Source: Candidatus Poribacteria bacterium (GTDB lineage: Bacteria; Poribacteria; WGA-4E; WGA-3G). From it: a stretch of DNA of 64,000 nt. Below are positions 7,526-57,378 of this stretch, one piece after another. The stretch is from contig OZ251518.1 of the NCBI GenBank assembly GCA_965242965.1, positions 2,752,001-2,816,000 of the forward strand, given 5' to 3'. Below the pieces are notes generated by a model that did no database searches, was not told the DNA's origin, and worked only from the letters and a program-made list of their open reading frames with translations. The position numbers and the translations under genes were made by a program. Within the stretch, counting starts at the first letter, position 1. Every line of letters starts with the position of its first letter.

Positions 7526-7561
7526 GGCGGGGGCCTGTCCCTCGCCATGTCACACTTAACC

Positions 7562-8100
7562 GAGGGTGTTTCATATATTGATGTCTTCCCGGTAGGAGAG
7601 ACCTCCTGGTCTCGATTGCTCCCCGTAGGAGAGCCCTCCCGGTCTCGATGTTCCCGTAGCGCGGGGGCCTGTCCCCCGCGTTGTGCCTCGTCAAGCGGTG
7701 GCGTTTTAGGTCCTTTAGGACCTACATGTCTATAGCAGCACGTGTCGGCCCGTTTTCAAGGTCCTTTAGGTCCTTAATAAAACACGCGCGGATCTGGCAA
7801 AAGCTATTAAGGACCTAAAGGACCTTAGTGTTCTTCGCGGGCGCGCGTGCTATAGACATTCAGGTCCTACGGACCTGAAGATAACCAGAGACGTTTTTTT
7901 CGTTCTCCCCTCTCTGTAGTTTGTGATCGCCTGATCACAAACGGGTCAGGATCAGGCGATCCTGACCTACAGGGGTGATGAGGTTTACCAGCCAAACGCA
8001 TGGCGAGGGACAGGCCCTCGCCCTACGTGAAGGGGCGGCGTTTTTTCACCGGAGCGCGGGGTCTGTCATCGCGACGTTGAGCGATTTATGAAACACCCTC
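7562..8100. mobile_element. MITE-like element with REP cargo (copy A)
   Basis: TIRs GAGGGTGTTTCATA / TATGAAACACCCTC flanked by direct repeat ACTTAACC (7554-7561 and 8101-8108). Confidence 0.8.
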
Positions 8101-8185
8101 ACTTAACCGAACGCTCGCGGGGGAAACCCGCTCGGATGCGCGTGTGGCATCCGAGGGCCCCGCGCTACGGGGACCGGGCAGCGGT

Positions 8186-9028
8186 TCATGTAGTCCGATT
8201 ATCCAGCGAATACTCGCGATTACCACCCGGGCCGCCGCCAATAGCCCATGTCCCTCGGAACAACGACTGCCGTTTCGGCGGCATTGTTTCTATCACCTCA
8301 TGGCTCAGATTGAGCCGATGCCACTGCGCCCAAATCGAGTTATAGCAGTTGAAAACGGCGCACCGCGGGTTATCCGGATTCGTCCAATCGTTCGCTGCAT
8401 GAACGAGACTCTCCGTGAAAATGACGACGGAGCCCGGCGGACAACTATATTCGTCCATTGCCTCGCGCATGTTCGCCTCCCACGGCGAGCCGCCGATGTT
8501 GGGGCGGTACGGGTCTGGGCCGCCGTAATTGAAATGTGCTTTGTGGGAACCGCTGAGGAAGGTGGTGCCGCCTTGTCCTGCCTTCACCTCCTCCAATTCC
8601 CACACGACGCGCGTCAATCCTGCGAAAATTTTCGCACCCGCAACCTGGTAGCGCATTGCGTTCGCTTGTTGCGGCGGCCGGACGACGTGCGGCAGTCCAT
8701 TATCCCCGCGCGTAGAAACGTCCCAGCCCGGCGGTCTCACCGTGGTAAACGAACCTTCGCATCGGAAGCCGTAACAGTCGTCTCTGACAAACGGCTCTTC
8801 AGACAAAATCTCGTTCAGAATGCCGACAATGGCGGGATGATCTAGCAGATTCTGCAGCGCGCCTTGGTAACTTTGTCTGGCACCGGCATACACTTCTGCC
8901 TTCGTCTCTTCAATTTCCGATGCTGATAAGATTTCCGGCAACAGAATCCAGCCGCGCAGATCGAAGAAAAACTTCTGCTCCGGTGTCATCTGCACTGGTG
9001 TATCGGTTCGGTTTTGCTTGGAGTTCAT
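8186..9028 (-). CDS. PhyH-family Fe/2OG dioxygenase (divergent)
   Basis: MTPEQKFFFDLRGW, GGTTFLSGSHK, PPGSVVIFTESLVHAA...PRCAVF. Confidence 0.8.
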   Translation of the reverse strand: MNSKQNRTDTPVQMTPEQKFFFDLRGWILLPEILSASEIEETKAEVYAGARQSYQGALQNLLDHPAIVGILNEILSEEPFVRDDCYGFRCEGSFTTVRPPGWDVSTRGDNGLPHVVRPPQQANAMRYQVAGAKIFAGLTRVVWELEEVKAGQGGTTFLSGSHKAHFNYGGPDPYRPNIGGSPWEANMREAMDEYSCPPGSVVIFTESLVHAANDWTNPDNPRCAVFNCYNSIWAQWHRLNLSHEVIETMPPKRQSLFRGTWAIGGGPGGNREYSLDNRTT

Positions 9029-9185
9029 CGTGTTTCCTCCTAAATCGGTTTTCCTTGCGGTTTATGTTATCAGAAATTGGCGATTTTTGCAAATCGTGGA
9101 AAAATTGCATGTGCCGCGAAAATGTGGTATAATATCTATCAAATATGGAGAAAAATGCACTTTACCGAAACATAAGGAGGACCTA

Positions 9186-10211
9186 TTGAAGTTCAACACC
9201 CTCTTTTTTGGCATGTTTTTGATATTCAGCACCGTCGCGAGTGTATCGGCGGATGCCCCCAAGTCGCGCCCAGATAGCCACGCGCCTATCGGTGTGATGG
9301 GGGAGCATGGGCATAAAAGTCGCGAAATCATGCTTGCTTATCGCTTCATGGGAATGCAAATGGAAGGCCTTCAGTCTGGCACAGAATCGGTTGAGGCGGC
9401 AGACGTGCTACATCATTTTATGGCAGTGCCAACACAGATGTCCATGCGGATGCACATGCTTGGTGCGATGTTCGCACCGCACGACCGGGGGACGCTCATG
9501 GTGATGACGAATTATCTCCAAAAACGCATGGACATGATGGGGGCGCACCACTCTACAGGCGGTGCGCACGGCCATGCTGCGATGCCCCATGAAATGTCCA
9601 GCGCGGGACTCGGCGACACCAAAGTGGAAGCGATACTCTCGCTGTGGAAAGGGCATAACCTGACGCTGATTGGCAACGCGGGTGTTTCGCTACCAACCGG
9701 TTCCATCGAACAGATGGGGGAGAACAAGCAGATTCTTCCCTATCCGATGCAACTAGGGAGCGGTTCGTTTGAACTGCGTCCGGGTGTAACGCTTGCAGGG
9801 TATCTCGGCTCCTGGTCCTACGGTAGTCAGTTGCGGGGCAGATTGCCACTCAACACGAACGCGCGAGACTATCAATACGGCAACGCTTACACGGCCACGG
9901 TGTGGGGCGCGCGGCGGTTGAGCGATTGGCTCAGCCTCGGTGCAAGACTCCGCTTTGCCCAGTGGGATACGTTCACGGGTAGCGATGCGGACTTGAATCC
10001 GATGATGAGTCCGAATCACCGGTCGGATTGGCGCGGCGGGCGGCAGCTCACACTGGCGATTTCCGGCAATCTGCTTGTGCCAACAGGTGCGTTAGCCGGA
10101 CAGCGGTTGGCTATTGAGTTTCAGCGTCCGATGTATCAAGACTTCACAGGGACACAACTCAAGACGACATGGGAGCTCATGTTCGGATGGCAATATGCCT
10201 TCCGGTTGTAA
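9186..10211 (+). CDS. Outer-membrane beta-barrel transporter-like protein, His/Met-rich (possible metal uptake)
   Basis: TTG start after AAGGAGG; signal peptide; RPDSHAPIGVMGEH; His/Met-rich loop; GLGD..GVSLPTGS..MQLGSG; aromatic C-terminal strand WQYAF. Confidence 0.7.
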   Translation: MKFNTLFFGMFLIFSTVASVSADAPKSRPDSHAPIGVMGEHGHKSREIMLAYRFMGMQMEGLQSGTESVEAADVLHHFMAVPTQMSMRMHMLGAMFAPHDRGTLMVMTNYLQKRMDMMGAHHSTGGAHGHAAMPHEMSSAGLGDTKVEAILSLWKGHNLTLIGNAGVSLPTGSIEQMGENKQILPYPMQLGSGSFELRPGVTLAGYLGSWSYGSQLRGRLPLNTNARDYQYGNAYTATVWGARRLSDWLSLGARLRFAQWDTFTGSDADLNPMMSPNHRSDWRGGRQLTLAISGNLLVPTGALAGQRLAIEFQRPMYQDFTGTQLKTTWELMFGWQYAFRL

Positions 10212-10233
10212 TCACATCATGGTGCTTTCACAC

Positions 10234-10635
10234 CCGTAGCGCGGGGGCCTGTCCCCCGCGATCTCTCGGTGAAAGGCAGCTCCGCGAGGGACAGGCCCTC
10301 GCGCTACGGTACAGCAGGTGGTGTCCGTTTTCCGTAGTGCGGGGACCTGTCCCCCGCGTTTTCTCGGTGAAAGGCAGCCTCGCGAGGGACAGGCCCTCGC
10401 GCTACGGCGCGACAGGCGGCAGGCGTTATCGTAGCGCGGGGGCCTGTCCCCCGCGTTTTCTCGATCCCCCGCGTAGCGCGGGGGCCTGTCCCCCGCGATC
10501 TCTCGGTGAAGGCAGCCTCGCGAGGGACAGGCCCTCGCGCTACGGTGTGACAGGCGGTGTGCGTTTAACGATGGCCTGCCTCGCGCTACGGTGCGGCAGG
10601 CGGCGTGCGTTTAACGATGGCCTGACCTTTCGCCT
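10234..10635. repeat. REP-like cluster between convergent genes
   Basis: Alternating GTAGCGCGGGGGCCTGTCCCCCGCG and inverted CGCGAGGGACAGGCCCTCGCGCTAC. Confidence 0.85.
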
Positions 10636-13925: not shown

Positions 13926-13938
13926 CGGAGACAGTTCT

Positions 13939-26028: not shown

Positions 26029-26079
26029 ATCGTTTTTCCACAGTGACATCCGTTGACTGAATATGTTATCATGTTACCT

Positions 26080-26973
26080 GAGAGTGTTTCATATTTCGAT
26101 GCGTTCGGTAGGAGAAACCTCCTGGTCTTGATTTCTTTGCTGTAGGAGAGACCTCCCGGTCTCGATGCTGCCAGACTTGCAAACTACAACGGTAGGCTTA
26201 TTCTCTTGGGCAGGCGTGCCTTCTCTTGATCCGTTCGGGAGCGGGTGCTCCCGAACTACAGATCCGGGGCATGAGCATGATCGCGGGGGACAGGCCCCCG
26301 CGCGACGATAAAAAACGGCCCCTTGCCGCGTAGGGCGAGGGCCTGTCCCTCGCCAAGCACCGGCGGGGGACAGGCCAAGCAGGAGCAGGATTTACAAGAT
26401 TATCACGATTAGCAAGAGAGGAGCAGGAGACTGTAGTTCGGGAGCACCTGCTCCCGAACGGGACATGGCGAGGTGGACCTCTTCCGGGCCCGTAGCGCGG
26501 GGGCCTGTCCCCCGCGATCGCACGATCTGCGAGAAAAACCACCCGCCAGCCAAAGCCGTTTCCTGTTCCGATCGAGGCACGGCGAGGGACAGGCCCTCGC
26601 CCTACGGGCCGCGGCACGTTTTTTCATAGTAGCGATCGTCCGACCCGCGCGAAAAACGCACGCAGACTAACGCTATTTCCCTCCCGACCGAGGCACGGCG
26701 AGGGACAGGCCCTCGCCCTACGGTCAGCGGCAAGTTTTTCTACCGCAATCGCCCGACCCGCGCGAAAAATGCACACCAGCCAAAGCCGTCTCCCGTTCCG
26801 CGCCGGCGGGATGGATTCTGGATCCTAAAAAAATTTAACTAGGAAAGAAAAAAGCAGTGTGATATACTGTTCATGTCAGGAAACTTCATAGGGTGTCTCC
26901 TAAAATGTTTTTGGTTCTTCATGCTAGGATACTCCATCTCCTAACGTTTTTCAACGATTTATGAAACACCTTC
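26080..26973. mobile_element. MITE-like element with REP cargo (copy B)
   Basis: TIRs GAGAGTGTTTCATA / TATGAAACACCTTC flanked by direct repeat ATGTTACCT (26071-26079 and 26974-26982). Confidence 0.78.
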
Positions 26974-27019
26974 ATGTTACCTGGGCTCAATAACATACCA
27001 TGATGGAGGGAAATCTCTG

Positions 27020-29613: not shown

Positions 29614-29886
29614 GAGGGGGTTTCATAAATCGCTCAACGTCGCGGGGGACAGGCCCCCGCGCTACAGTAACGGGAGGGTTTCTGAGTCGAAAAACGGCCC
29701 CCTTCCGCGTAGGGCGAGGGCCTGTCCCTCGCTATGCGTTTTGCTGCCAGACCGCATCACCCCTGTAGGTCAGGATCGCCTGATCCTGACCTGTTCGGGA
29801 TCAGGCGATCCCGAACTACAGCAGTGGGCCCGATGCCTTTCGGCATTCGCCCGCCCCCAAGGGGGATAGATTTATGAAACACCTTC
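29614..29886. mobile_element. MITE-like element with REP cargo (copy C)
   Basis: TIRs GAGGGGGTTTCATA / TATGAAACACCTTC; flanking duplication imperfect. Confidence 0.6.
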
Positions 29887-30723: not shown

Positions 30724-30873
30724 AAACAAAACACATCAAGACCAGGAGGTCTCTCCTACCCGAAGAATCAAGACTGGTAGGCGGGACATCCTTGTCCCGA
30801 TACGAAACACCAACAAAACACATCGAGACCAGGAGGTCTCTCCTACCGGGAAGACATTGATATATGAAACCCC

Positions 30874-33800
30874 TCACTTCACCACCAACATCTTCCGCGT
30901 CGCTGTGAAATTGCCTGCAGTGAACGTGTAGAAATACACCCCACTTGCCACAGCCTCTCCCGCAGCGTTTCTGCCATCCCAATACGCCGCACGGCCGCGG
31001 ATATGATAGATGCCCGCCGGCTGATAGCCGAAATCTAACCTCCGAACCAACTGCCCATCGGCCGCATAGATAGAGACGCTGACTTCAGCAGGCACGGACA
31101 ATTGATACGGTATCCACGTCTCCGGGTTAAACGGATTCGGATAATTCGGCAAAAGTGCTGTATCCTTCGGCGTTAACACCGCCAAAAGGTAGTGGAGGAA
31201 GAGGACACCGCGCTGATATTTCGCATCGGTGCCGTTCGGTTGCATCGCCTGCGCCTGCGCAAGCCACTGTTGCACCATGGCCGCGGTCGGCGCGTGAGAC
31301 AGCTGCACCTCCACAGCCGGTGCCCCTGCTGCGCCACCCGCTAGCGCGCCAGCCACCAAAACCAGATCCGCGATGTTGACAAAGCCATCACCGTTGAGAT
31401 CTGCAGGATTCCCTGCATCCCGTTCCCCAAAACGGGCGGCGATAAACGTCAAATCCAGAATGTTCACGAGGCCATCGCCGTTGGCATCTTGCGAACCGAC
31501 AACGATGTTCAACTCCGGCGGCATCACATGGAGTGTATCACCAAAACGCGTCCCTGCCTGAAAGTTCTCCAGCGTCACCCGGCTGTTCCCTTTCCCGATG
31601 ACAGTGAAATTCACCGAGAGCAAGGTGCCGTGTGGAAACCCCTTGTCTCTGGAGAGTTGGACAGACTTTAACCCGATAATCTTACCGGTGCGATTCTCGA
31701 TGGTGCCCTCGTCAAAGAAGGTCGCGCCATCGTTCTGCTTCAGAAAATCGCCTTCGCTGACCTGGGTGGCTTCTAACACAGCGGGATTGAACGTCAAATC
31801 CGCTTGCCACCCCTTCAAATCGGTGACGTTTGCTGTATTCAACGAGAGCGTGAACGTATCTCCCACCTCAAACTCCGTTGCATCGGTGGAAAAGGAGAAG
31901 TTGAGACTCGGACGGAACAGGGTGTATATCGCGTCAGGGGCAAACCCAAAGAAGCCGCTAAACCCACCATGCCCACGGTTGTCAACGGCGACTAGCAAGG
32001 CGTTTTTCCCTTGCTTCAACGTGACAGGGAAGAAATCTTGGTAATCGCCAGCCCCACGGTGAACGAGTGCCTGGTGAACCAATTCACCGTTGAGCCAGAC
32101 TTTGACAGCATCATCGCTTCCCACGAACATCGTCGTCTGCTGTTCCTTCGGCGTATCTAAGAGGATAGAACCGTAGACGATATGGTCGTAGATTTCCTCA
32201 CGTCTTCCCCATCCGAGGGATGCAGTCATGTCATTGATATTGTCCCAACCGGTGGAGGAGAGTCTGTGGGCTCTCCATTTGCTCTCTCCGACGGCTTTGC
32301 CTTCCATTGCACCGGTAGTAGCCACCCTCAGTTCTGTTACGTCACCGCCACTGGCTCGTGCGAGAAAATCGGTGCGGCTATCCAGTCGTGTTCCGGGAAC
32401 GAGCACCCATAACCACGGCCCCGTGATTTTCGGGCCGCCTGATCGGTATCCAGGGTTTTCGGTGAGAATCACGTTCGTCTTCTCGCGTAACCCTTGCAAG
32501 GCAGAGAAGTCGGCTATCTTGTTGTTACGGAGGTTCAAATATTCCAAGTTGCGTAATTCAGCGAGTGGGGACACGTCCACTATTACGTTTGCTTGCAGCT
32601 CTAAACCCCTTAGATTGACGAGACGGGCGAGCGGGGATACATCAGCAATTTTGTGTCCATAAAGTTTCAAGGTTCTTACACTTGTTAAGCCACTCAACGG
32701 GGAAAGGTCTGATACCGAGCCTGAACCGATGTGAACAAAATCTAGGATCTTTAATCCAGCCAGCGGCGAGAGGTCTGATACGGGGCCTCCATGCATCACA
32801 ATCGATCTCAGTTTTCGCAATTTCGCCAGAGGTTTCAGGTCTGAGATACGCGTGTCGAAAGCTTCCAGTCTGCTTAGGCTGAGCATCCCGGAAATCGGCG
32901 AAATGTCGGAAACGGGATTCCCATTAATCCCTAACCCATCTAATTTCACTAAGCCGGAGAGTGGGGATAAGTCGGTTATCCGATTCTCCTCCAATCCTAA
33001 CCACCCCACGTTGATTAACTTTGCCAACGGGGACACGTCGGTTATCAGATTATCTCGCAACTTGATATTCCCCAGACGCGTGAGGTTTCGGAGCGGCGAG
33101 ATGTCCGTTATCAGATTGTGACGCAACTCCAGCAGCCCCAGATTCGTGGCGAATTCTAATCCTGTCAAATCACGAATGCCTTTGGAATCGGCGTGCAATT
33201 CCCTTAATCGCAGCATATCCTCCTGCGTGAGTTGGACATTTTGCGGTTTGCCGAGAGTCTTGTGAATCACTGCACGTAACTGCAGGTCTGGGATATGAAC
33301 CCCTGAAACCGTCGGTGTTCCATCGTCAACAGGAATGACGACAGGGTCCTCGGACAACAGTGCGGCAACGAGGGTGCTGAATTGCGATGTCCAAGTATCT
33401 CGTTGCACGCGCCCGGTTTCCAACAGGAGTGATTCCAATCCGAGGGTTTGCAATTTCCCCTCCCGAATCTCTCGTTGGAAAATAGGCGTTGCGTAACCGA
33501 CAGCGGCGGCAGCGTGCGCCGCATCTAGCGGCTCTTCAAACCGCTGATGGAACCGTTCTACCGGCTCAATGCCGCCGAAGATACCGCCAGCCGCTTCCAA
33601 TGCCGTTTGGAACCGTTGCATATCCTCCGCCACAAGTCCGTCCATAACTGCTTGTTCAACATAGAGCCTGAGTGCTTGTTCGATATCATAAGGCGGATTC
33701 ACTTGTTGCTGCTGTTGCTCAATCACTGCCCGAACGCCGTCCTTAAACGCCTTCATTCCTTCGGTGTGGCACCCGATACAGGACAACCCGTTGTGAACCA

Positions 33801-34983: not shown

Positions 34984-35062
34984 TGAAAAGTTCCTTTTAT
35001 CTCAAAGCGGTTGGGCTCGGGCTGCGCCGCAGAAAACCCAACCTTGGTGTTCATAATTATTT

Positions 35063-35499
35063 GAGGATGTTTCGTAAATCCGTGTCGGAGATCTCTTCCA
35101 GCCTCGATGCAAGCAATGTCCCTGTAGGAGAGACCTCCTGGTCTCGCTCTTAGGTCCGTAGGACCTTAATGTCTATAGCACGCGCAGACGCGAAGAATGC
35201 TAAGGTCCTTTAGGTCCTTAATAGTTTTTGCCAGGGCCGCGCGTGTTTTATTAAGCTCTGTAGGTCAGGATCGCCTGATCCTGACCTGTTTGTGATCAGG
35301 CGATCACAAACTACAGAGGGGAAACACACCTCTTGACGATGGAGATCGCGGGGGACAGGCCCCCGCGCTACGGGCGGAGAAAGCCCTAGAGAAAATCGAG
35401 ACCCGAGGTCTCTCTTACCGGGAAGACATCAAGACCCGGCGGGCTTTCCTACCCCAGGAGGACTCCCCTACCGAACGCATCGAAATATGAAACCCACTC
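35063..35499. mobile_element. MITE-like element with REP cargo (copy D)
   Basis: TIRs GAGGATGTTTCGTA / TATGAAACCCACTC flanked by direct repeat AATTATTT (35055-35062 and 35500-35507). Confidence 0.75.
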
Positions 35500-35501
35500 A
35501 A

Positions 35502-37967
35502 TTATTTGCTTATCAGCATCTTCCGCGTCGCCGTGAAATCGCCCGTGGTGAGCGTATAGAAATAGATGCCGCTCGCAACCGGTTCACCGAGTTCGTTTCT
35601 CCCATCCCAGTACGCCGCACGATGCCGCGCTTCATACCGCCCGAGGGCTCGATGCCCTAACGTTAACGTCCGAACTAAAGTGCCATCAACAGCATAGAGC
35701 CGCACCGTCACCTGCGCCGGTTCAGAAAGATGATACGGTATCCACGTCTCCGGATTAAACGGATTCGGGTAGTTCGGTAGCAAGGCTGTCTGTGCCGGAC
35801 GCAGCCGGGAGAGAAGCCGTTGGAGGTTAACGATGCCTTTGTAGAACGCAGCTGTCCCGTCGTGGACTGCCTGCGCTTGTGCAATCCATATCTCAAGCGC
35901 GGCTGGCGTAATAGCCGAGGGTGCGGCGGCTCCCGCTAATTCGTCAATACTTTCTGCGACAAGCCCCAGGTCCAACTCACTCACTTTTCCATCGCCGTTG
36001 ATATCCGTGCGCGGGTTAACGAGTTTTTTGGTGCCTAATTCGCGTGCCACGAGAATCAGATCGAGAATGCTCACCTGTCCATCTGAATTCACATCTGCCA
36101 CAAGTGGCGGGTCGCGCACAATAATAGGGCGGCTTTGCGGTGGGAGCACCGTCCAATCCGTGCCGCCTTCAAATCCAAAAAAGCCGCTCCACCAACCCCT
36201 GTCCTCGTAAACCGCAACCAATAAAACGTTTGTCCCCTGACGCAGCGTAACGGCGACATCCTCCTGATACCCTTCCGATATCCTATCTACAGGATTGTTG
36301 TGAACCAATCGTCCGTTGAGCCATACCTTGACTGCCCCATCGCTTCCCACAAACAGCCGTGTCTGCTGCGTGCGCGGTGCATCCAAGGTTAACGAACCGT
36401 AAGCCACGTGAAAATCGACGTTGTCTCTTCCGAGCCCGGCGGCGTTCACTACGTCATTGATGTTATTGCCGCCTCTGGCAGCCAGTCTCCCGGCTGTCCA
36501 GACTTTCTCCCCTACAGGCTCTCCCGCTATCGCTCCTTCATCTGCAATTTGCGGCTCGGTTACCGCGCCGTCGCTCATTTGAGAGAGAAAATCGATGTCG
36601 GAAGAAGCGGCAGCTGGTGCTAACATCCTCCCCGTCGGAGCGATAATCCACAGCCACGGCCCTGCGATGTGCTTCGGCGTGGCGCGCGTGGCACCGGGGT
36701 TGTCGTGCCGAATGATAGCGACGCGCCGCGAAAACGCAGACAACGGCGAAAAATCCGATATCGCGTTGTCCTCCAAGTTGATAGATTGCACATTGGGTAA
36801 GGCTGCGAGCGGCGTGACATCCGATACCTCGTTGTGCTTCAGACTCAGGTGCGTCAATCCTGTTAAACTCGCCAACGGCGAAATATCCCTGATGTCGTTG
36901 TCAACAAGATAAAGTTCTCTTAATCCGGTAAGTCCTTCCAAGGGCCCGAGGTCAGATATGTTTGCACCACAGATATCTAACTCTCTTAGCCGTGGCAAGT
37001 CGGCAAAACCGGTGAGGCTGTAAATCGGCGTGCCCCACGAGCGAAAACGTTCCAAGCGTTCCAAACCCGCCAATGGTGCCGAGTCGAATCCCACGTTGTC
37101 GCTTATCCACAAGCCTATCAGATTTTTGAGATTCGCGAGGGGTGTGATGTCCGATATCACGTTATTGCTGAGCTCAAGCCTTCCCAAGTTGGTTAAATTC
37201 GCGAGGGGTGTGATGTCGGCTATCAAATTCCCTTCCAGTCCTAGGTGCCACAATCCGGTTAAACTGGCGAGTGGCGTGATGTCGGATAGCGCGTTGCGCC
37301 GCAAACCTAAATGTCCCAATCCGGTTAATTCAGCGAGCGGCGTGATGTCCGATATGGTATTGTCACTAAGCCCCAGTTCTACCAAGCCACTCAACCCGGC
37401 GAGCGGCGAGACATCCACTATCGCGCATTCGTCCAGCCATAACTCGCGCAGGTGGTTCATTCCCGAAATCGGAGTCAAATCGGACACTGGATTGCCGCTG
37501 AGGCCGACTCCATCTAACTTGCCGATGCTGGCGATGGGTGTTAAGTCGGTAATCGCGTTCCACTCGAGCCCGAGCCACTCAACGTTGACAAGTTGTGCGA
37601 GCGGTGTGATGTCGGATATCTCGTTGTCGTTCAGCTTGATATTATCCAGCGCGAAGAGCCCTGCCAGCGGCCCGAGGTCGGATATTGCGTTGCGGCGTAG
37701 CTCCAGCCGTTCCAGATTGACAGCGAATTCCAAACCAGTCAAGTCGCGAATCTTCCTGCCATCGGCATCAAGCCGGTGTAGTCTCGCCATGTCCTCGCGT
37801 GTGATTTGCTCGCCTTTCTCCTTGTCGAGGTGTGCTGCAATAGCGGCGCGGAGGTTCGCGTCGGGGATGTTCACCACTTGCGATTCTGCGTGCGGCGGCA
37901 TCCAAAGCACCATCGCGCATCCAATGAGTGTAGAAGCGAATATACGGAAAGTTTTCAGTAGTTTCAT
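35502..37967 (-). CDS. Secreted internalin-like LRR protein with dockerin-like and FlgD/T9SS-like C-terminal domains
   Basis: VNIPDANLRAAI cap; 22-aa LRRs (N.ISDITPLA.L..L..L.L); DVNSDGQVSILDL; LLPNYPNPFNPETWIPY. Confidence 0.9.
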   Translation of the reverse strand: MKLLKTFRIFASTLIGCAMVLWMPPHAESQVVNIPDANLRAAIAAHLDKEKGEQITREDMARLHRLDADGRKIRDLTGLEFAVNLERLELRRNAISDLGPLAGLFALDNIKLNDNEISDITPLAQLVNVEWLGLEWNAITDLTPIASIGKLDGVGLSGNPVSDLTPISGMNHLRELWLDECAIVDVSPLAGLSGLVELGLSDNTISDITPLAELTGLGHLGLRRNALSDITPLASLTGLWHLGLEGNLIADITPLANLTNLGRLELSNNVISDITPLANLKNLIGLWISDNVGFDSAPLAGLERLERFRSWGTPIYSLTGFADLPRLRELDICGANISDLGPLEGLTGLRELYLVDNDIRDISPLASLTGLTHLSLKHNEVSDVTPLAALPNVQSINLEDNAISDFSPLSAFSRRVAIIRHDNPGATRATPKHIAGPWLWIIAPTGRMLAPAAASSDIDFLSQMSDGAVTEPQIADEGAIAGEPVGEKVWTAGRLAARGGNNINDVVNAAGLGRDNVDFHVAYGSLTLDAPRTQQTRLFVGSDGAVKVWLNGRLVHNNPVDRISEGYQEDVAVTLRQGTNVLLVAVYEDRGWWSGFFGFEGGTDWTVLPPQSRPIIVRDPPLVADVNSDGQVSILDLILVARELGTKKLVNPRTDINGDGKVSELDLGLVAESIDELAGAAAPSAITPAALEIWIAQAQAVHDGTAAFYKGIVNLQRLLSRLRPAQTALLPNYPNPFNPETWIPYHLSEPAQVTVRLYAVDGTLVRTLTLGHRALGRYEARHRAAYWDGRNELGEPVASGIYFYTLTTGDFTATRKMLISK

Positions 37968-38118: not shown

Positions 38119-38502
38119 GTTTTTTAAAGAACACCGCCGTTTTCCCGTAGCGCGTGGGCCCTCGGATGCCATACGCGCATCCGAGCGGGTTTCCCTCGCG
38201 ATCGGGGCACGGCGAGGGACAGGCCCTCGCCCTACGGTAAAGGGAGCCGTTTTGGATACCGTAGCGCGGGGGCCTGTCCCCCGCGAACGTCCGGTAGACC
38301 GCAGCATGGCGAGGGACAGGCCCTCGCCCTACGGTAAGCGAGGCCGTTCTGGATACCGTAGCGCGGGGGCCTGTCCCCCGCGATCGTTGCATGGCGAGGG
38401 ACAGGCCCTCGCCCTACGGTAAAGGGGCGGCGTTTTTTCTTGCAATTTATCTTCATTTACGTTAAAATACTCATAACCCAATCAAAATACGGAGGAAAAA
38501 CA

Positions 38503-41500
38503 ATGCTCAACATCAAACCCACACACAAACCCATAAAAAACTACTACGCTGAACTTGGACGCTATGCAAAACTCGGCGCGCAACATGAAGGTGCCGTCCG
38601 CGTCGCCTTCCAAAACCTGTTGCAACATTACGCAACACTGCGCAATCTCACGCTGATATGCGAAAAAACCCGCACCACACCCAACGGCAACCACATCCGC
38701 ATCGATGGCGAAATCGTCACCGACTTCGGACTCATCTTCGGCCACTGGGAGGCGAAAGATCTCCTCGATAACCTCCCCACCGAAGCGCAACAGAAATTTG
38801 CCACCGGCTACCCCGCCAAAAACATCATCTTCCAAACGCCGCACCGCGCCATACTCTACCAAAACGGCGCGCTTATCTTGGATGTAGACATCACCGAGCC
38901 GCGCAATCTCATCCAACTCCTTGAAACCTTCTTCGCCTACACGGAGGAAAATCTCGCCGAATGGGATGCCGCTGTCAACACATTCCAAGATACCATCCCC
39001 CAACTCGGCGCGAAATTGGAGGCACTCATCCAAACCGAACGCCAGAATACCCCCGAATTCCGCGAGGCGTTCGCGAATTTCCATCAGCAGTGCCGAGACG
39101 CGATCAACCCCAACCTCGCCGAGGCGGAAGTTGAACGGATGCTCGCGCAACATCTCATGACTGAGCGCATCTTCCGCACCGTCTTCAACAATCCCGATTT
39201 CACTCACCGCAATATCATCGCCCGCGAAATCGAGAAAGTTGTGCGCGTGCTAACCCAACATGCGTTTGACAGGCATCAGTTCCTCCAAAGTCTCAATCCG
39301 TTTTACACCGCGGTTGAACGAACGGCGGCGAACCTCACCGATTTCTCGCAGAAGCAAGATTTCCTCAACACCCTTTACCAACGCTTCTTCCAAGACTTTT
39401 CTGTCAAGGATGCCGATAGACACGGCGTTGTCTACACCCCGCAACCTATCGTCGATTTCATGGTGAATAGCGTCCAACATCTCCTGAAAACCCACTTCGG
39501 CAAATCGCTGTCCGATGCAGGGGTTCATATCATCGATCCCTTCGTCGGCACCGGCAATTTCATCGTGCGGCTGATGCAGGACATCCCCGGCATCGCGCTG
39601 GACAAAAAATATAAAGGTGAGCTCCACTGCAACGAGGTGATGCTTTTGCCTTACTACATCGCCACGATGAACATCGAACACGCCTATTATGAAAAAATGG
39701 GGCGATACGAACCTTTCAAGCACATCTGTTTCGTTGACACGTTCGATACCTTTGGGCTCATGGACGCGCCAAACCAGACCGGGGAATTCGCCTATTTTAC
39801 GCCGGAGAATACGATGCGCGTTCGAGAGCAGAAGGAAACACCGATGTTCGTCGTCATCGGCAATCCGCCCTATAACGCGAGTCAGTCAAACGAGAATGAT
39901 AACAACAAGAACAGACCGCATGAGGCTGTCGACAACCGTGTGCGCGCCACTTACGTCGCCGCCTCCACGGCGCAGCTGAACAATAAGGTCTACGATCCTT
40001 ATGTGAAATCCCTCCGGTGGGCATCGGATAAAATCGGGCCAGAAGGCATGATCGCTTTCGTCACGAACAACGGTTTTATTGATGGCAGGATGTTTGATGG
40101 ACTGCGGCAATGTCTCGCCGAGGAATTTGACGTGCTCCACATTCTGGACCTCGGTGGCAACATGCGCAAGGGACAACCCGGCAACGCCAATGTGTTCGGC
40201 ATTACCGTCGGGGTGAGCATTAATCTCTTGGTGAAGACAAAGGGCCCTCGGCAAGGGCCTGCGCGCATTCTCTATAGCGATGCGGCGGCGGCACTCCCGA
40301 AAGAACGCACCTTCCAATTTTTGGCAGAGAACGCACACGTCGGTAATCTGAAATGGCGCGAGATTCAACCGAACGCGCGCCACATGTGGCTCACTGACGG
40401 ATTTGCAGCCGATTTTAACACGTTCATCCCGATGGGCAGCAAAGCCGCAAAATCGGCGAAAGGCGCAGTAGAAGGCACACTCTTTAAAACTTTCAGTCTC
40501 GGTGTTTCCACGAGCCGCGATGCATGGGTTTACAATTTCAGTCAGGAAAAGTTGACAGAAAACATGACGCGGATGATGGACAACTACAATAGTGAAGTAG
40601 CCCGATGGGAGAGACGGCACAACCGAGGCATCAACGTCAAGGATTTCGTGGATACCGACAAAACGAAGGTGAAGTGGAGCCGAAGTCTCATGTCCCAGTT
40701 GAGGCAGGGCAAACTCGCTGCGTTTTCGCCGGAAAAAGTCCGCACGTCACTTTACCGGCCGTTTACGAAATCGTGTCTCTACTTCGATCGGACGATGAAC
40801 GAGTGCGTCTATGTAATGCCATCCATCTTCCCGACACCGGAAACCGAACAGGAAAATCGCGTGTTATGTGTCAATCTGACACAGGAAAGACCTTTTACTT
40901 GTCTGATGGCCAACTGCATTCCGTCAAGTATTATGGCAGGTGGATTCGGTTCTCCGACGCAGTGCTTCCCCTTCTACACCTACGACGAGGATGGCACCAA
41001 CCGCCGAGAAAACATCACCGACTGGGCATTATCCCACTTCCGCACGCATTACGCCGACGAAACCATCACCAAATGGGACATTTTCCACTACAATTACGCG
41101 CTCCTGCATCATCCAGAATACCGCGAGACGTATCAAGTCAACCTCAAGCACGACTTGCCGCATCTCCCCTTCGCCCCGGATTTCTGGGGGTTTGTGAACA
41201 TCGGGCGCGCTTTGGCGGACATGCATGTCAATTATGAAACCCTTGACGTGATGCCAAACCTCATTGAAACCCCGCCGCTCAATTGGCGCGTGGAGAAGAT
41301 GGAATTATCCAAAGACAAGACGGAACTCCGCTATAATGAATCCTTGACGGTGGTGGATATCCCTCCCGAAGTGTTGAGTATCGTTTAGGCACGCGTTCTG
41401 CGTTAGAGTGGCTCATCGATCGGTATCGCGTCAAACCCGATCCGAATGGGAGTGGTCTTGTCTCGGATCCGAATGGTGAAGATGGGCAATATATCGTTCG

Positions 41501-41573
41501 GTTGGTCGGGCAAGTGATGCATGTGAGTGAAGAGACGGTGCGGTTGGTTGGGGAGTTGCCGCGCCTCACGTAG
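38503..41573 (+). CDS. Type IIG/ISP-like fused restriction endonuclease and N6-adenine methyltransferase, with apparent frameshift near 41375
   Basis: RIDG..WEAKD nuclease motif; GVVYTPQPIVDF, DPFVGTGNF, IGNPPY; LYRPF, DIFHYNYALLHHPEYR (type ISP C-terminal region). The conserved tail EYRLGTRSALEWLIDRY continues in another frame to TAG 41573. Confidence 0.82.
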
Positions 41574-41891
41574 GGCGAGGGCCTGTCCCTCGCCATGCTT
41601 CCAGAAGGCATCGGGCCCATCTCTGTAGTTCGGGAGCGCCTGCTCCCGAACGGGTCAGGATCAGGCACTCCTGACCTACAGGGGTGAGGCGGTCTGACTC
41701 TCCTACGGCGCGCGATCGGCCGTTCGCGGGGGAATCGAGACCGGGAGGTCTCTCCTACGGGACGCTCGCGGGGGCCTGTCCCCCGCGCTACGGGAACCGG
41801 ACGGTGTTTCATAACTCTGTAGTTCGGGAGCGCCTGCTCCCGAACGGGTCAGAATCAGGCGATCCTGAACTACAGAGGTGAGATTTGCATC

Positions 41892-42392
41892 TTATAGAAA
41901 TTTTTCCAGATACACCGCATCATAGAAGCACCCATCAAGTTTGACATGTTTTTTGGCGATGCCGACTTTCTCAAAGCCGAGTTTGCCATAAAACCGGAGA
42001 GCCCGCGCATTATGTGCCAAAACCTGAATGGCGAGCTTCACGTAACCGTTATCCCGCGCAAATGCAAAAGAGGCTTCCGCGAGACGCTGCCCAATTTGAT
42101 ACCCGCGAAAATCAGCGCGAACCCACGTTCCCACCGTGCCAACGTGCCGCATCGAATCGGTATAGTCGGCTAACCCATCGGGCTCAATGACTTGGACACC
42201 GGCGATTTCCGCATCAACTTCGGCGACGAACATAGCACTCCGCGCCCCTAAACCGGAGATGAACGCGTGCTCCTCTGCCGCCGTAAACGGATTCGTTAGC
42301 GCAGTCCATCGTCCTTCCAGAATAACGGCGTTCATCACGGAGACAACCGCCTCTGCGTCGTCAGGGGTCGCTTTTCTGATTAAGGCATCCAT
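41892..42392 (-). CDS. GNAT-family acetyltransferase
   Basis: IRKATPDDA, FRGYQIG, NARALRFYGKLGF. Confidence 0.88.
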   Translation of the reverse strand: MDALIRKATPDDAEAVVSVMNAVILEGRWTALTNPFTAAEEHAFISGLGARSAMFVAEVDAEIAGVQVIEPDGLADYTDSMRHVGTVGTWVRADFRGYQIGQRLAEASFAFARDNGYVKLAIQVLAHNARALRFYGKLGFEKVGIAKKHVKLDGCFYDAVYLEKFL

Positions 42393-43135
42393 CTCGTTTT
42401 TAGCCGTCCCCACGTTGTCGTGACTTTGCCGGCAGGTTTGACAGGCAGCTGGATGCCGTTTTTCATATCGCTTTGAATCTCGTCGGCAGAAAGCGCGATG
42501 CCCAGAATCTGAAGTTCATCAATAAAGCCATCAATACCGTTCCCGATGCGAAGCGGCGCGTCGTTGGTTTCAGGGTTCTTCGTAAAATCGCCTGAGCCCT
42601 CTTCCTTGCCATTAATATAGAGTTTCAACGCAGTTTTATCATAAGTTAGTGCAACGTGATGCCACTTTTCGTCAACGACATCGGTCGCGCTCTCCAATTC
42701 AACAGCATCCGTATTTCCGCCGCTGGCAAAAATACCGTAAACCTTGCCTCCCCACATTTTGACGGTGTAGTTGCGGGTAGCCCTGTCATTGCCGACTTGT
42801 TTGTAGGCGATGTTCTGTTCGCCGCCGCCCGTATCGCTGAGGAACTTAACCCACGCAGCGACGGTGAAGGTTTCTAGGTTCAATTTATCGGTATGTGCGA
42901 CCTCCAGATAGGTGCCGGGCTTGAAACCGACTGCCTTTCCGATTTTGCCTTCATCCCATTCCAGTTTCCCACCGACGACTGTCGCGGTATGTCCATGTCC
43001 GGAACTATCCGCCGCTTCATCGCCTTGTCCCTCATCAAAGAACCAAATGCCGACGGCATCGGGGTGCTGCGCGTGCCCCAACGCGCATATCGCGAAGAGG
43101 GACAACATCATTATTAAACATAAATTAGACTTCAC
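42380..43135 (-). CDS. Secreted LamG-like jellyroll protein with PVKPAGKVTTTWGRLK C-terminal motif
   Basis: WFFDEGQG, GKIGKA, FTVAAWV, WHHVALTYD..LYING, FIDELQI. Confidence 0.88.
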   Translation of the reverse strand: MKSNLCLIMMLSLFAICALGHAQHPDAVGIWFFDEGQGDEAADSSGHGHTATVVGGKLEWDEGKIGKAVGFKPGTYLEVAHTDKLNLETFTVAAWVKFLSDTGGGEQNIAYKQVGNDRATRNYTVKMWGGKVYGIFASGGNTDAVELESATDVVDEKWHHVALTYDKTALKLYINGKEEGSGDFTKNPETNDAPLRIGNGIDGFIDELQILGIALSADEIQSDMKNGIQLPVKPAGKVTTTWGRLKTRWMP

Positions 43136-43424
43136 AAAAACCTCCTATAGCCATTCACGAATCCTGAAACTTCAGAAAACAATTAGGGCATTTTTCCCGC
43201 GTGTGATGACACGAGAACCGCTTTGGAAACGTTGGACGGGGGCCTGTCCCTGCGAGGTAGGAGAGACCTCCCGGTCGCGATGCGTTTGTTGGTGTTTTTA
43301 TCGGGACAAGGATGTCCCGCCTACCGGAGGAGGCGAGACATCCCGCGTCTCGATTCCCCACTTCGTCAGGCACGCGAGGGACAGGCCCTCGCGCTACGGG
43401 CCAGGCGGACCGGTGCGGGCCGGT

Positions 43425-44261
43425 TTAGGAATACCCGCCGAAACCCAACAGCATCCGTTCCTCCAGGTCTGCCTCTTTGAGGAAGGCATGCGTTAAACCA
43501 TCTGCCGGCTGTTCGCCACCGTGCGGCGATTTACGCAGCCACGTCGGCGTATAACTCAAAATTAACATTCGACGCTTGGCTTTCAACGTCGGCATCCCAC
43601 GATGCCACAGGTTACCGTGAATCAAAACCGCGCCGCCTGCCTTGACTGAGACCTCCACCTCACCTTCGATCGGTTCGTAGGTATCGGGCACGACTCTATC
43701 AAGCCAATTGTGCGAACCGGGGACGACTGCCACCGTACCGGTGTCTGCGTTCAGTTCATCGAGGTAGATAAGGCAGTCAATGCAGTGCGGCTGCGAGAAC
43801 CACGGGGGCAGCGGATTAGAAATCACCCGCAGGTGTTGATGCCACGGAGTCTGCTGCTGCCTATCCTCGCCGGGGTAAGTGATACGTGCGCTCAGCCCGC
43901 GTAAGCGCACCAGCGGTCCCATCATCGCCCGCGCAATGGACAACGTCGGCTGGAATTTCAACAATTCTAGAAACGCCGGATCTTTGTCCATTAAGTGGCG
44001 CGGAATGAACCCCCATCCCCGTTTGCTAGAGATGGCGTTATCCCGTTTCTCCCATTCGCGCGTCTCCAAACGTTCCAGCGCGTCGCGCAATTTTTGGAGT
44101 GCCTCGCCTTGGAAGAGCCTCTCGCGAATCAGATACCCCTTCTCGGCGAACGCCTGCAACTCTTCTGCCGTGGCATGCACCTCTATGTCCCAGTGCCGCC
44201 CCGTTTCGCCGCTCGGATTGTGAGAGTTCAGGACTTCATAATGAATTGTATGTGGATGCAT
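43425..44261 (-). CDS. PhyH-family Fe/2OG dioxygenase (HxH variant)
   Basis: FAEKGYLI, PWHQH, IYLD..VVPGSH, HGNLWHRG..RR. Start at 44261 or 44279. Confidence 0.85.
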   Translation of the reverse strand: MHPHTIHYEVLNSHNPSGETGRHWDIEVHATAEELQAFAEKGYLIRERLFQGEALQKLRDALERLETREWEKRDNAISSKRGWGFIPRHLMDKDPAFLELLKFQPTLSIARAMMGPLVRLRGLSARITYPGEDRQQQTPWHQHLRVISNPLPPWFSQPHCIDCLIYLDELNADTGTVAVVPGSHNWLDRVVPDTYEPIEGEVEVSVKAGGAVLIHGNLWHRGMPTLKAKRRMLILSYTPTWLRKSPHGGEQPADGLTHAFLKEADLEERMLLGFGGYS

Positions 44262-44877
44262 CTTTTTCTCTATAGACATTAAGATCGCGAACGACCTTTA
44301 CGTATTGTCCTATAGCGTCTGTAGGTCAAGATCGCCCGATTTTGACCCGTTCGGGAGCGGGCGCTCCCTAACTACAGAGTTAGGAAACACCGTCCGGTTA
44401 CCGTAGCGCGGGGGACAGGCCCCGCGAGTTTTCGGTAGACCGAGGCATGGCGAGGGACAGGCCCTCGCCATACGATGAAAGGGGCCGTTCTACTGTGAAG
44501 AAACCGTCCGGTTACAGTTATGAAACACCGTCCCGATACCGTAGCGCGGGGGCCTGTCCCCCGCGAGTTTTCGGTAGACCGAGGCATGGCGAGGGACAGG
44601 CCCTCGCCATACGATGAAAGGGGCCGTTCTACTGTGAAGAAACCGTCCGGTTACCGTAGCGCGGGGGCCTGTCCCCCGCGAGCGTCCCGTAGGAGAGACC
44701 TCCCGGTCTCGATTCCCCGCGAACGTCCGATGACGCGCCGTAGGAGAGGCAGACCGCCTCACCTCTGTAGGTCAAGATCGCCCGATCTTGACTTGTTTGC
44801 GATCAGGCGATCGCAAACTCCAGAAGCGGATAACCACGGTCTTGGGATTTCTAACTCCGCCTATCCTCCGTTCAGCA

Positions 44878-52839: not shown

Positions 52840-52856
52840 GCACTATTCCTTTAACT

Positions 52857-52985
52857 GAGGGTGTTTCATAACTCAAGAAACCGTCCGGTTACCGTAGCGC
52901 GGGGGCCCTACGTGAAGGGGCGGCGTTTTTTCACCGCAGCACGGGGCATGTCACCGCAACGTTGAGCGAGTTATGAAACACCCTC
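52857..52985. mobile_element. MITE-like element (copy E, shortest at 129 bp)
   Basis: Perfect TIRs GAGGGTGTTTCATA / TATGAAACACCCTC flanked by direct repeat CTTTAACT (52849-52856 and 52986-52993). Confidence 0.82.
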
Positions 52986-53049
52986 CTTTAACTAACCCGT
53001 GCAGTAGGAGAGCCTGCCTGGTCTCGATGCAAAAAAAGAGGAAAACACA

Positions 53050-54153: not shown

Positions 54154-54161
54154 TTTTGTTA

Positions 54162-54758: not shown

Positions 54759-54881
54759 GAGGGACATCATCTCACGCGTCTCTGGCGATGCATCGTCTTT
54801 GCATTGCAAACCGTGTGCAGTAGGAGGGACATCCCTGTCCCGATACCTTGCAATCACAACTGCAAAGCATTGCAAACCCTG

Positions 54882-55853: not shown

Positions 55854-55956
55854 GGCACCGGTTACTCGCGCCGATAGCGTTCACTTACCAGGCCGTCTAG
55901 ACGTTTATACCGCGTCGTTGTAAAAATTGCAATTAACCAGCAGAAAGGAACTTTTC

Positions 55957-56793
55957 ATGTCACAACTTGAGAAAATTCGGATTGGACACAGCCCCGATTC
56001 CGATGATGCATTCATGTTTTATGCCCTGGCCAAAGGGCTGATTCCGACTGAACCGTTTGAAATCGTCCACGTCATTGAAGACATTGAGACATTAAACCGG
56101 CGCGCACTTGTCGCTGAGTTGGAAGTCACCGCGATTTCCGTTCATGCTTACGCCTACGTCGCCAACGATTATATTTTCATGCCTTGCGGCGCGAGCATCG
56201 GCGATAGATACGGCCCCCTCGTCGTCTCCAAAGAACCGATGGCCAGCGTCGCCGGCAAGCGCGTCGCCATTCCCGGTGAAATGACAACCGCCTATTTGAC
56301 GATGCGGCTCTACCAACCCAATTTTGAGGCGGTAACATGCCGTTTTGACGAGATTCTCGCGGCAGTCCAGCGCGGCGACGTTGATGCCGGGCTCATCATT
56401 CACGAAGGACAGCTCACCTACGAACGCGAGGGATTCCACAAAATCGTTGACTTAGGAGAGTGGTGGGACGACGAAACCGGTTTGCCGCTCCCTCTCGGCG
56501 CGAACGTCATCCGCCGGAACCTCGGCACCGAGAATATTCAGAAAATCACTGCGTTGCTTAAAGAGAGCATCCAGTATTCGCTAGAGCATCGGGAACGCGG
56601 GCTTGAATACGCAATGCTTTACGCCCGCGACATGGAGACATCCCTCGCCGACCGGTTTGTCGGCATGTATGTGAACCACTACACCCTCGATTACGGTGAA
56701 AAAGGAAAAGCAGGCGTGCGCGAACTGCTCATCCGAGGACACGAAGCAGGTATCATCCCGCACCGCGTGGATGCCGACTTTGTCACGTTGTGA
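55957..56793 (+). CDS. mqnD: 1,4-dihydroxy-6-naphthoate synthase (futalosine menaquinone pathway)
   Basis: GHSPDSDDAFMF, DIETLN, YGP, AIPG..TTA, IIHEGQLTY, DLGEWW..TGLPLPLG, MYVN. Confidence 0.9.
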   Translation: MSQLEKIRIGHSPDSDDAFMFYALAKGLIPTEPFEIVHVIEDIETLNRRALVAELEVTAISVHAYAYVANDYIFMPCGASIGDRYGPLVVSKEPMASVAGKRVAIPGEMTTAYLTMRLYQPNFEAVTCRFDEILAAVQRGDVDAGLIIHEGQLTYEREGFHKIVDLGEWWDDETGLPLPLGANVIRRNLGTENIQKITALLKESIQYSLEHRERGLEYAMLYARDMETSLADRFVGMYVNHYTLDYGEKGKAGVRELLIRGHEAGIIPHRVDADFVTL

Positions 56794-56802
56794 GGAACCC
56801 CC

Positions 56803-57009
56803 ATGGACACAAAACGCCGCAGACAATTCCAATTAGAAGACGCTAACGGTAAAAAACTGGCGACAGGCGTGCTCTATGAAGAAGGGAACGTGCAAATCCT
56901 GTGGCGCGCTGACATCGGCTGGACAGCGGAGCAATACTCCTCTGCAACTCCCCTTTTAAATTTGATGCCGGGGATTGCCGTGCTCCGTCTTTCCGATGCT
57001 GAAAATTAA
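56803..57009 (+). CDS. Small hypothetical protein
   Basis: GAGGA RBS directly after the mqnD stop; protein-like composition. Confidence 0.6.
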   Translation: MDTKRRRQFQLEDANGKKLATGVLYEEGNVQILWRADIGWTAEQYSSATPLLNLMPGIAVLRLSDAEN

Positions 57010-57011
57010 CT

Positions 57012-57378
57012 GAGGGTGTTTTATATTTCGATGCAATACCGTAGGAGAGACCTCCTGGTCTCGCTTGTCCCGTAGCGCGGGGGCCTGTCCCCCGCGAGCG
57101 TTGGATGACGCGAGCGATGGCGAGGGACAGGCCCTCGCCCTACAATCAAGTGCCGTTTTTTTCACCGTAGCGCGGGGGCCTGTCCCCCGCGAACTACGAT
57201 GAAGGGGGTGATTTCTGCCGCCGCGGCCCCGGGAGGCGCGCCGCCCTATTGCATCGAGACCAGAGGTCTCTCCTACCGGAAGAAATCGAGACCAGGAGGT
57301 CTCTCCTACCGGTCCCCGTTTTTTCACCGTATCGCGGGGCCTGTCCCCGCGACGTTGAGCGAGTTATGAAACACCCTC
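57012..57378. mobile_element. MITE-like element with REP cargo (copy F)
   Basis: TIRs GAGGGTGTTTTATA / TATGAAACACCCTC; no clear target duplication. Confidence 0.6.

Follow-up and report, generated by a model that had tools for sequence, protein, structure and literature searches.

The stretch of DNA analysed here, referred to as the window, comprises 64,000 nucleotides of the genome of a Candidatus Poribacteria bacterium (G000:C1:2752001-2816000); the genome has a size of 5.7 Mb in two contigs and is 94.7% complete. Between the genes of the window lie six blocks that are bounded by inverted copies of a 14-bp end, GAGGGTGTTTCATA, and whose interiors consist of hairpins of the repetitive extragenic palindromic (REP) type. 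In the initial annotation, which was made from the sequence alone, these blocks were described as resembling a miniature transposable element with inverted repeats (MITE), of the DDE type with fixed ends, short target duplications and a different REP cargo in every copy. All six inverted pairs could be confirmed, as could the exact direct repeats flanking four of them and the orphan ends at 4221, about 30863 and 63455. By every defining feature tested the blocks are copies of a MITE, and they belong to a real and very large family.

The 14-mer was searched for in the window and in the whole genome with up to two mismatches. Seventeen ends of this type were found in the window, whereas 0.32 were expected and the maximum of 100 shuffles was 3. 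In the whole genome 1026 ends were identified, of which 530 were exact, 370 had one mismatch and 126 had two; by our own arithmetic about 36 chance matches to the 14-mer are expected at this scale, nearly all of them in the two-mismatch class. The terminal inverted repeats (TIRs) are shared by all copies, and conservation of the ends reaches to about position 21. The distance from a plus-strand end to the following minus-strand end has a median of 430 bp, compared with 4558 bp from a minus-strand end to the following plus-strand end. When ends not more than 3 kb apart were matched like brackets (stack pairing), 628 of the 1026 ends formed 314 convergent pairs with a median element length of 386 bp, which agrees with the expectation that ends of a MITE are mostly paired and convergent. 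The other 398 ends (∼39%) were orphans under this pairing rule, a number that is an upper bound, since partners with indels or more than two mismatches, for example the end at 30863, fall outside the scan.

Exact flanking duplications of 7-11 bp were present in 102 of the 314 pairs, compared with 0.6 pairs expected when left ends were randomly re-paired with right ends, and the classification as a DDE-type MITE was thereby upheld. Most of these duplications were 8 bp (65 pairs) or 9 bp (27 pairs) long, and lengths of 7, 10 and 11 bp were observed in 4, 4 and 2 pairs, respectively. With one mismatch allowed, the number of pairs with a duplication rose to 145, against 5.3 expected. The outer flanks of the paired ends revealed a palindromic target, the octamer A-n-T-T-A-A-n-T. 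An identical profile was found outside the 333 orphan ends with at most one mismatch, indicating that the orphans are the remains of true insertions. A targeting of promoters was considered and rejected, as none of the positions up to 70 bp away, apart from those of the 8-bp target, reaches 0.08 bits. A weak enrichment of the motif TTGAC was seen 33-35 nt outside the end (it starts there in 24 of 900 flanks, genome-wide), and in a minority of insertions the AT-rich target may coincide with the -10 region of a promoter.

The ends carry a limited number of subterminal modules. The tract ATCGCTCAACGTCGCG, which had initially been noticed in several copies of the window, is one of several recurring end modules and occurs at 276 of the 1026 ends. 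Modules A, B and D are carried by 276, 144 and 329 ends, respectively, and others were observed in addition. Module D consists of the TIR and a REP of type c, the REP being separated from the 14-mer by a short, constant spacing. Among the pairs the combinations A-B (66), A-D (65) and D-D (41) are accompanied by many minor ones, with A-A found in 3 pairs and B-B in none.

The copies and ends of the window are listed in Table 1. The copy at 7562-8100, which combines a left end with module D and a right end with the ATCGCTCAACGT module (A), lies within the spacer of a REP composite that exists in many copies. The copy at 35063-35499 has two mismatches in each TIR, and for the copies at 29614-29886 and 57012-57378 an exact flanking duplication was not found. 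At the orphan end at 63455 unrelated REPs take over after the backbone and extend as far as the next gene; a right end is absent. Module F, seen at the orphan end at 4221, has 35 copies in the genome and has the tract GTTGTCAAAA in common with the left end of the parent insertion sequence (IS) described below.

Table 1. Paired copies, orphan ends and variant ends of the MITE family in the window (positions are those of the window).
Feature	Position	Strand	Evidence and remarks
MITE copy, 539 bp	7562-8100		8-bp duplication ACTTAACC at 7554-7561 and 8101-8108
MITE copy, 894 bp	26080-26973		9-bp duplication ATGTTACCT at 26071-26079 and 26974-26982
MITE copy, 273 bp	29614-29886		canonical 266-bp A-B subfamily, two REP doublets
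MITE copy, 437 bp	35063-35499		8-bp duplication AATTATTT at 35055-35062 and 35500-35507
MITE copy, 129 bp, smallest of the window	52857-52985		8-bp duplication CTTTAACT at 52849-52856 and 52986-52993
MITE copy, 367 bp, D-A type	57012-57378		TIR pair
Orphan end, module F	4221-4234	-	14-mer scan
Orphan end, D type	30863-30876	-	1-nt deletion in the TIR (TATGAAACCCCTC), so missed by the 14-mer scan
Orphan end, A type	63455-63900	+	canonical backbone plus one extra REP doublet
Three variant ends GACGGTGTTTCATA (GACGG)	41800, 44381, 44519	+, -, -	14-mer scan; region 41800-44532 lies outside the family proper

Sites without the element, which had been proposed as a check on transposition, could be identified both in related genomes and within this genome. 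Two congeners were available, G001, which is fragmented (210 contigs, 86% complete) so that its counts are possibly low, and G002, which is 76-88% identical to this genome over aligned stretches. In G002 the flanks of the copy at 26080-26973 abut with a single ATGTTAC and those of the copy at 52857-52985 with a single CTTTAAC, so that both loci are represented by an orthologous empty site. The orthologous spacers of the copy at 7562 in both congeners, and those of the copies at 29614, 35063 and 57012 in G002, were too diverged to call. When the pre-insertion sites of the 102 pairs with exact duplications were reconstructed, three matched elsewhere in this genome across the junction, two of them cleanly. 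The paralogous empty site of the copy at genome position 4648026 reads AGTAAAGT (92.8% identity over 139 bp), and that of the copy at genome position 301847 contains a single GATTAAC. The pre-insertion site of the copy at 7562 was discarded as a candidate, as it matches 222 other genomic places with ∼90% identity and is not clean, the spacer of the composite being variable. The reverse case was also found, a 198-bp copy in G001 whose corresponding site is empty in this genome.

In the public sequencing runs the contigs of four runs mostly break at repeats, and the evidence comes only from one contig of a sponge-associated run (X5) that bridges the site at 52857 without the element. This contig has 65 differences over ∼3.9 kb and is ∼98% identical to the window; at the site itself 37 other letters replace positions 52856-53048. 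Further along, from position 57005 of the window onward, contigs of the runs X1 and X5 that match up to 57004 continue with 47 and at most 213 letters unlike the window. The divergence sets in at the point where the copy at 57012 starts, and close strains seem to differ at this locus as well.

At two loci both this genome and G001 contain a copy, and both the end modules and the interiors differ between the two genomes. The junction is shifted by 1 bp at one of the loci. At the other, where the target is the same, the copy of this genome (G000:C1:3012258-3012735) has a left end truncated by ∼11 nt and is flanked by a 20-bp direct repeat with one mismatch instead of 8 bp, whereas the copy of G001 is an ordinary one flanked by 8-bp repeats.

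A scan of 40 relatives with the exact 14-mer led to an autonomous element with the same ends. A genome of the same family and another genus (G022) contains seven identical elements of 1107 bp with perfect 17-bp ends, GAGGGTGTTTCATAAAT, which are the same as those of the MITEs, and an 8-bp duplication (AGATAATT at the copy that was read). The element has a single open reading frame (ORF) of 353 codons, and homologues of its product mostly have 332 residues. This transposase matched PF13612 with 39.1 bits (cut-off 27) and also PF01609, and its homologues in the protein collection carry PF13612; with the NCBIfam IS982 equivalog model it scored 54.9 bits, below the cut-off of 130. The sequence of the protein shows a DNGY motif and an R/K-x3-E...K motif, which are putatively catalytic. 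Public records naming the protein call it 'hypothetical protein'.

In public genomes, with one genome per species, 78 related loci were found, nearly all in genomes titled Candidatus Poribacteria. A TIR pair 900-1800 bp apart is present at 36 of them, 20 of which have exact 8- or 9-bp duplications, and the 42 loci without a TIR pair mostly encode transposases that are at most 47% identical. With E ≤1e-10 the transposase was detected in six of nine, three of nine and one of two genomes of three other genera and in none of the three genomes of this genus. A transposase gene bounded by the same TIR, as the initial annotation had suggested searching for, thus exists in related Poribacteria but not in this genome.

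The link between the MITEs and this IS is provided by the copy at 26080-26973. Its right-hand ∼125 bp are a remnant of the left end of the parent IS, and the remainder consists of REP arrays; the alignment of window positions 26845-26973 to that end takes in the ribosome-binding site as well as the ATG and initial codons of the transposase gene. The remnant ties the MITEs to the IS by descent. When the parent transposase was used in tblastn against this genome, only fragments of 24-54 amino acids were obtained, located directly inside TIRs, for example at C1:2371353-2371746. Family searches of this genome with PF13612, PF01609, PF12762, PF00872, PF03400 and PF01610 gave no match, and transposases of the IS1595, IS4/IS5, IS256, IS1, ISL3 and PF13612 types were not found in it by such searches. 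As neither this assembly nor the two congeners yielded an intact transposase, the MITE family is probably immobile now, or depends on an unassembled copy.

Other candidates for an autonomous copy in this genome were rejected. Convergent TIR pairs 0.9-8 kb apart with exact or one-mismatch 8-mers enclosed ordinary genes, and their number was near chance. Among the matches listed, repeats of at least 700 bp from a self-megablast were paralogous gene families. The one family inspected has nine copies, at C1:1120154-1122179 and eight other places, and is 88-90% identical over ∼2 kb; it encodes large, secreted-looking, surface-protein-like proteins and is not an insertion sequence.

The interiors of the MITE copies are arrays of GTAG-tagged, GC-rich REP hairpins, which often form inverted doublets and are present in high copy number. 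Nine motif families were counted, resulting in 10,803 REP units in the genome. The paired elements, which make up 2.76% of the genome, contain 2,000 of these units (18.5%), and 81% lie outside them. With ORFs crudely masked, the elements contain 12.8 REPs per kb, compared with 6.9-9.4 per kb in the remaining non-ORF DNA, a difference of ∼1.4-1.9-fold. The share of units located inside elements depends on the REP type and amounts to 36% for type f and 26-27% for types g, e and h. The commonest REP has 2368, 759 and 477 copies in this genome, G001 and G002, respectively, and 0-1 copies in 23 other relatives; for exact TIRs the corresponding counts in the three genomes are 530, 5 and 1. The MITE burst is therefore largely confined to this lineage, whereas the commonest REP is common to the whole genus. 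Given the number of REPs, their location mainly outside the elements and their occurrence throughout the genus, the MITE is not their main vehicle, and the most economical view is of two mobile systems, independent of each other, that overlap in a genome saturated with REPs.

A gene resembling those of REP-associated tyrosine transposases (RAYTs) was identified by a single PF01797 match, in an open frame flanked by REPs of type g. This gene forms the terminal part of an open frame of 368 codons (L002, G000:C1:3146083-3149418), the first two thirds of which are translated REP arrays, so that automatic annotation would overextend the gene. A second Y1 match belongs to an IS605-like unit (L001, G000:C1:3123891-3127127), in which a 408-aa TnpB-like ORF stands beside a Y1 gene with two TGA stops; this broken gene looks like part of an IS605-type element and not like a RAYT.

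Among the 314 pairs 261 distinct REP layouts were found, 244 of which are unique, and 209 copies have no collinear full-length relative. In the A-D class there are 63 layouts among 65 copies, and in the D-D class 41 among 41. The claim that every copy has a different cargo is therefore true of the six window copies and of most of the genome, but not of a 266-bp subfamily of the A-B type, to which the copy at 29614-29886 belongs. The copies were clustered by single-alignment coverage; clustering by summed BLAST coverage was abandoned, because the shared REPs match everywhere and nearly all copies were merged. Two clusters of 38 and 27 copies proved to be reverse complements of one 266-bp consensus, so that ∼65 copies have one layout, with two REP doublets at fixed places. 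These two doublets were copied with the element, which indicates that they were its cargo.

The same subfamily was used to follow changes in the interiors. Sixty-three backbone copies have a median identity of 92% to the 266-bp consensus and contain 43 insertions of at least 20 bp, nine of which contain REP arrays, each at a single locus. In addition, 14 and 8 of the 63 copies have a 29-bp hairpin with the core CTCGGATGC...GCATCCGAG in the loop of the one or the other REP of the backbone. In REPs of two different types this hairpin stands, at a fixed position, in place of the loop and forms a palindrome nested in a palindrome; it has ∼600 copies in the genome, with an example in the window at 8109-8175. 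On a tree of the backbone 11 changes were counted for 14 carriers, compared with a mean of 12.8 after shuffling. The carriers do not seem to form a subfamily: they are no more similar to one another (0.872) than are non-carriers (0.867; 348 of 2000 shuffles reach this), and they are unclustered on this low-resolution tree. The unique REP-array insertions, the 29-bp loop inserts and the orphan at 63455 are best read as changes in resident copies, and the unique insertions together with the orphaned ends point to later remodelling.

A variant end of the GACGG type, GACGGTGTTTCATA, has 15 copies in the genome. The three copies in the window, which are among its 17 ends and had not been listed in the initial annotation, surround ordinary genes and have no flanking duplication; as read from the ORF translations, the genes in 41800-44532 look like acetyltransferase, lectin-like and dioxygenase genes. 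Beside the variant at 41800, at positions 38356-41562, lies an 86% identical paralogue of a restriction-modification-like gene of 1035 aa, which is itself contained in a TIR-bounded 3.9-kb interval with an exact 8-bp repeat (G000:C1:188873-192792). The 8-bp repeat around this interval may be due to chance.

These results are probably best explained by MITEs that arose from a small IS of sponge-symbiont bacteria, carried REPs inside and subsequently had their interiors rearranged. On this reading the MITEs descend from a 1.1-kb IS with 17-bp ends and a PF13612 / IS982-like DDE transposase of 332-353 aa. Acting in trans, such a transposase would cut the ends and insert the element, duplicating the target, at a palindromic A-n-T-T-A-A-n-T site where the staggered cut spans 8 bp or sometimes 9 bp. 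That this enzyme moved the copies is suggested by the related genomes that still encode it. The GTAG-tagged REPs would represent a separate and older mobile system of the genus with at least one RAYT gene. They would have entered source copies and spread with those, as in the 266-bp subfamily, and REP-level insertion of doublets, tandem duplication, insertions into loops and deletions would then have rewritten the resident copies, leaving most of them with a unique interior and many with one end lost. The REP changes presumably took place after insertion of the copies and not in short-lived source copies, and RAYT activity may have driven them. The explanation draws on what is shown above, namely the ends and duplications, a consensus for their target, sites that lack the element, an IS as parent with its remnant in a window copy, cargo common to one subfamily, and unique insertions in the backbone of that subfamily.

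Several observations weigh against this explanation. An exact duplication is kept in only 32% of the pairs. No transposase is encoded in this 94.7% complete assembly of two contigs, and the enzyme had to be deduced from relatives in other genera; at the same time the X5 contig lacking the 52857 copy and the private insertion in G001 point to fairly recent mobility, which is poorly explained by an extinct transposase. The loci shared with G001 could be independent insertions into hot spots, or could have been remodelled since the split. Intact duplications are about equally frequent in the A-B (26 of 66), A-D (24 of 65) and D-D (12 of 41) classes, whereas variable classes should keep fewer duplications if variability simply grew with age. 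Non-canonical layouts occur in families of 2-7 copies, so that variant interiors have also been transposed. Finally, the tree of the hairpin carriers is based on ∼210 columns and is poorly resolved, which makes the scatter of the carriers weak evidence.

Some of these points fit an alternative in which the interiors were assembled before transposition, with any nearby inverted ends of neighbouring or decayed copies pairing and moving the REP-rich DNA between them. The limited set of end modules does combine in several ways (the A-B, A-D and D-D pairs and many minor ones), the non-canonical layouts form families of 7, 5, 4, 3, 3 and 2 copies, and the equal frequency of intact duplications in variable and uniform classes is as it would predict. 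[quoted passage not shown] Two TIR-bounded intervals of 2902 and 3920 bp with exact 8-bp repeats, containing ankyrin-repeat and restriction-modification-like genes, would be in line with such events, but their number is near chance (∼0.5 expected by our own arithmetic, from a control of ∼0.13% per pair and ∼370 combinations), and six long intervals with one-mismatch repeats compare with ∼5 expected. Moreover, most copies lack a collinear full-length relative, and the internal extra ends that are expected in composites are rare under stack pairing. As the unique REP-array insertions in an otherwise intact canonical backbone are more simply taken as in-place events, assembly before transposition is considered unlikely, and rearrangement of resident MITE copies is preferred.

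The initial annotation had proposed a two-tier system in which the MITE either disperses REPs or serves as a landing pad for them, and this mechanism is largely right: dispersal is found in the 266-bp subfamily, and remodelling in the unique insertions and the ∼39% of orphan ends. The results do not establish a coupling of the two tiers, in which the MITE would be the long-range vehicle that seeds REPs, local expansion would follow, and the success of the REPs would depend on the DDE element. Such a dependence is judged improbable. It is true that the 266-bp subfamily placed two REP doublets at ∼65 loci, that the elements contain more than their share of REP units, in particular of types f, g, e and h, and that in this genome the MITE burst coincides with a copy number of the commonest REP ∼3-5 times that of the congeners. 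However, 81% of the units lie outside paired elements and their density inside is only moderately raised, G002, which has one exact TIR, contains the commonest REP in 477 copies, and IS-carrying relatives of other genera are without this REP. That the 14-bp ends are instead a REP-associated motif moved by an HUH/Y1 (RAYT) enzyme, with no DDE transposition involved, is hardly credible. The presence of a RAYT-like gene and the fixed short distance between REP and 14-mer in D, the commonest end module (329 ends), would suit it, but it is already contradicted by the 8-9-bp duplications, the palindromic target and the empty sites, and by the fact that in many related genomes devoid of these REPs the same ends enclose a gene for a DDE transposase. 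HUH single-strand transposition, for its part, is not known to produce target duplications.

Among known systems, the closest to the parent element and its derivatives are the insertion sequences of the IS982 family and PF13612 and the MITEs derived from DDE insertion sequences. They have in common a length of ∼1.1 kb, one ORF, short TIRs, a DDE domain and a short duplication, as well as non-coding deletion derivatives that keep only the ends. The parent transposase is IS982-like by Pfam only, as it stays below the cut-off of the stricter NCBIfam model. The ends found here start with GAGGG, while IS982 ends are reportedly listed by ISfinder as AC, and here the parent IS was not found in the genome with the MITE burst. 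A physical association of DDE elements with REPs is also a feature of the insertion sequences that target REPs, reportedly described by Tobes and Pareja in 2006. Here, in contrast, the target is an AT-rich octamer, the REPs are located inside the element and not around it, and only one window copy sits in a REP composite.

Classical MITEs such as Correia/NEMIS, RUP, ERIC, Nezha and Chunjie are likewise small, intergenic and present in high copy number, with TIRs and duplications; in the accessible parts of the literature (PMC3733652, PMC10969869) their copies are described as variants of one sequence, whereas here 244 of 314 copies have a unique REP interior. No mention of REP cargo in MITEs was found in the accessible text of a 2024 review of prokaryotic MITEs (PMC10969869). 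The interiors resemble the REPs, bacterial interspersed mosaic elements (BIMEs) and REP doublets forming hairpins (REPINs) associated with RAYTs, as far as these are covered in the accessible text of PMC3116915, PMC3337134 and PMC3733652, in their GTAG hairpins, inverted doublets, mosaic arrays and thousands of copies, and in a RAYT-like gene flanked by REPs. They differ from these, within the same limits, in that a single genome holds at least nine motif families and more than 10,800 units, many of which are located between DDE-type ends, and in the 29-bp hairpin nested in the loops of other REPs. With the TIMEs, as presented in the accessible text of PMC4133298, the family has in common fixed ends, variable cores, AT-rich targets and mobilisation in trans. 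The transposase superfamily and the duplication length are different, the cores of TIMEs are captured plasmid segments or genes and not REP arrays, and capture before transposition is, as stated, thought unlikely here. On REPs in Poribacteria, and on REP-filled MITEs or MITE-REP chimeras, nothing was found in a literature search that had most subscription journals outside its reach.

MITEs and REPs are textbook elements that are usually treated separately, the former as products of DDE cut-and-paste transposition and the latter as linked to HUH/Y1 enzymes. Here one genome contains about a thousand DDE-type ends, and the interiors between them are built from REPs. To what had been noted initially, the analysis adds statistics for the whole genome, the palindromic nature of the target, sites without the element, and the parent IS together with its absence from the genus, as well as direct evidence for both carried and later-added REPs. 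For the Poribacteria, it means that an IS family common across the group gave rise in one lineage to a non-autonomous burst, while the autonomous copy disappeared from the assembly.

To our knowledge, the mode in which REP doublets insert is still unsettled. Since the pre-insertion sequence is known from the family consensus, each gain or loss of a REP in this multi-copy backbone can be read to the base, with exact junctions, and be tested from sequence data alone. As a tentative and rather doubtful proposal, the MITE backbone may be a natural recorder of REP mobility, in which hairpins enter beside or inside REPs, the 29-bp one repeatedly and independently in REP loops. If true, this would amount to a hairpin-loop-directed insertion mode for HUH-associated repeats, and to a nesting of selfish elements at three levels, with a hairpin in a REP, the REP in a MITE and the MITE in the genome.

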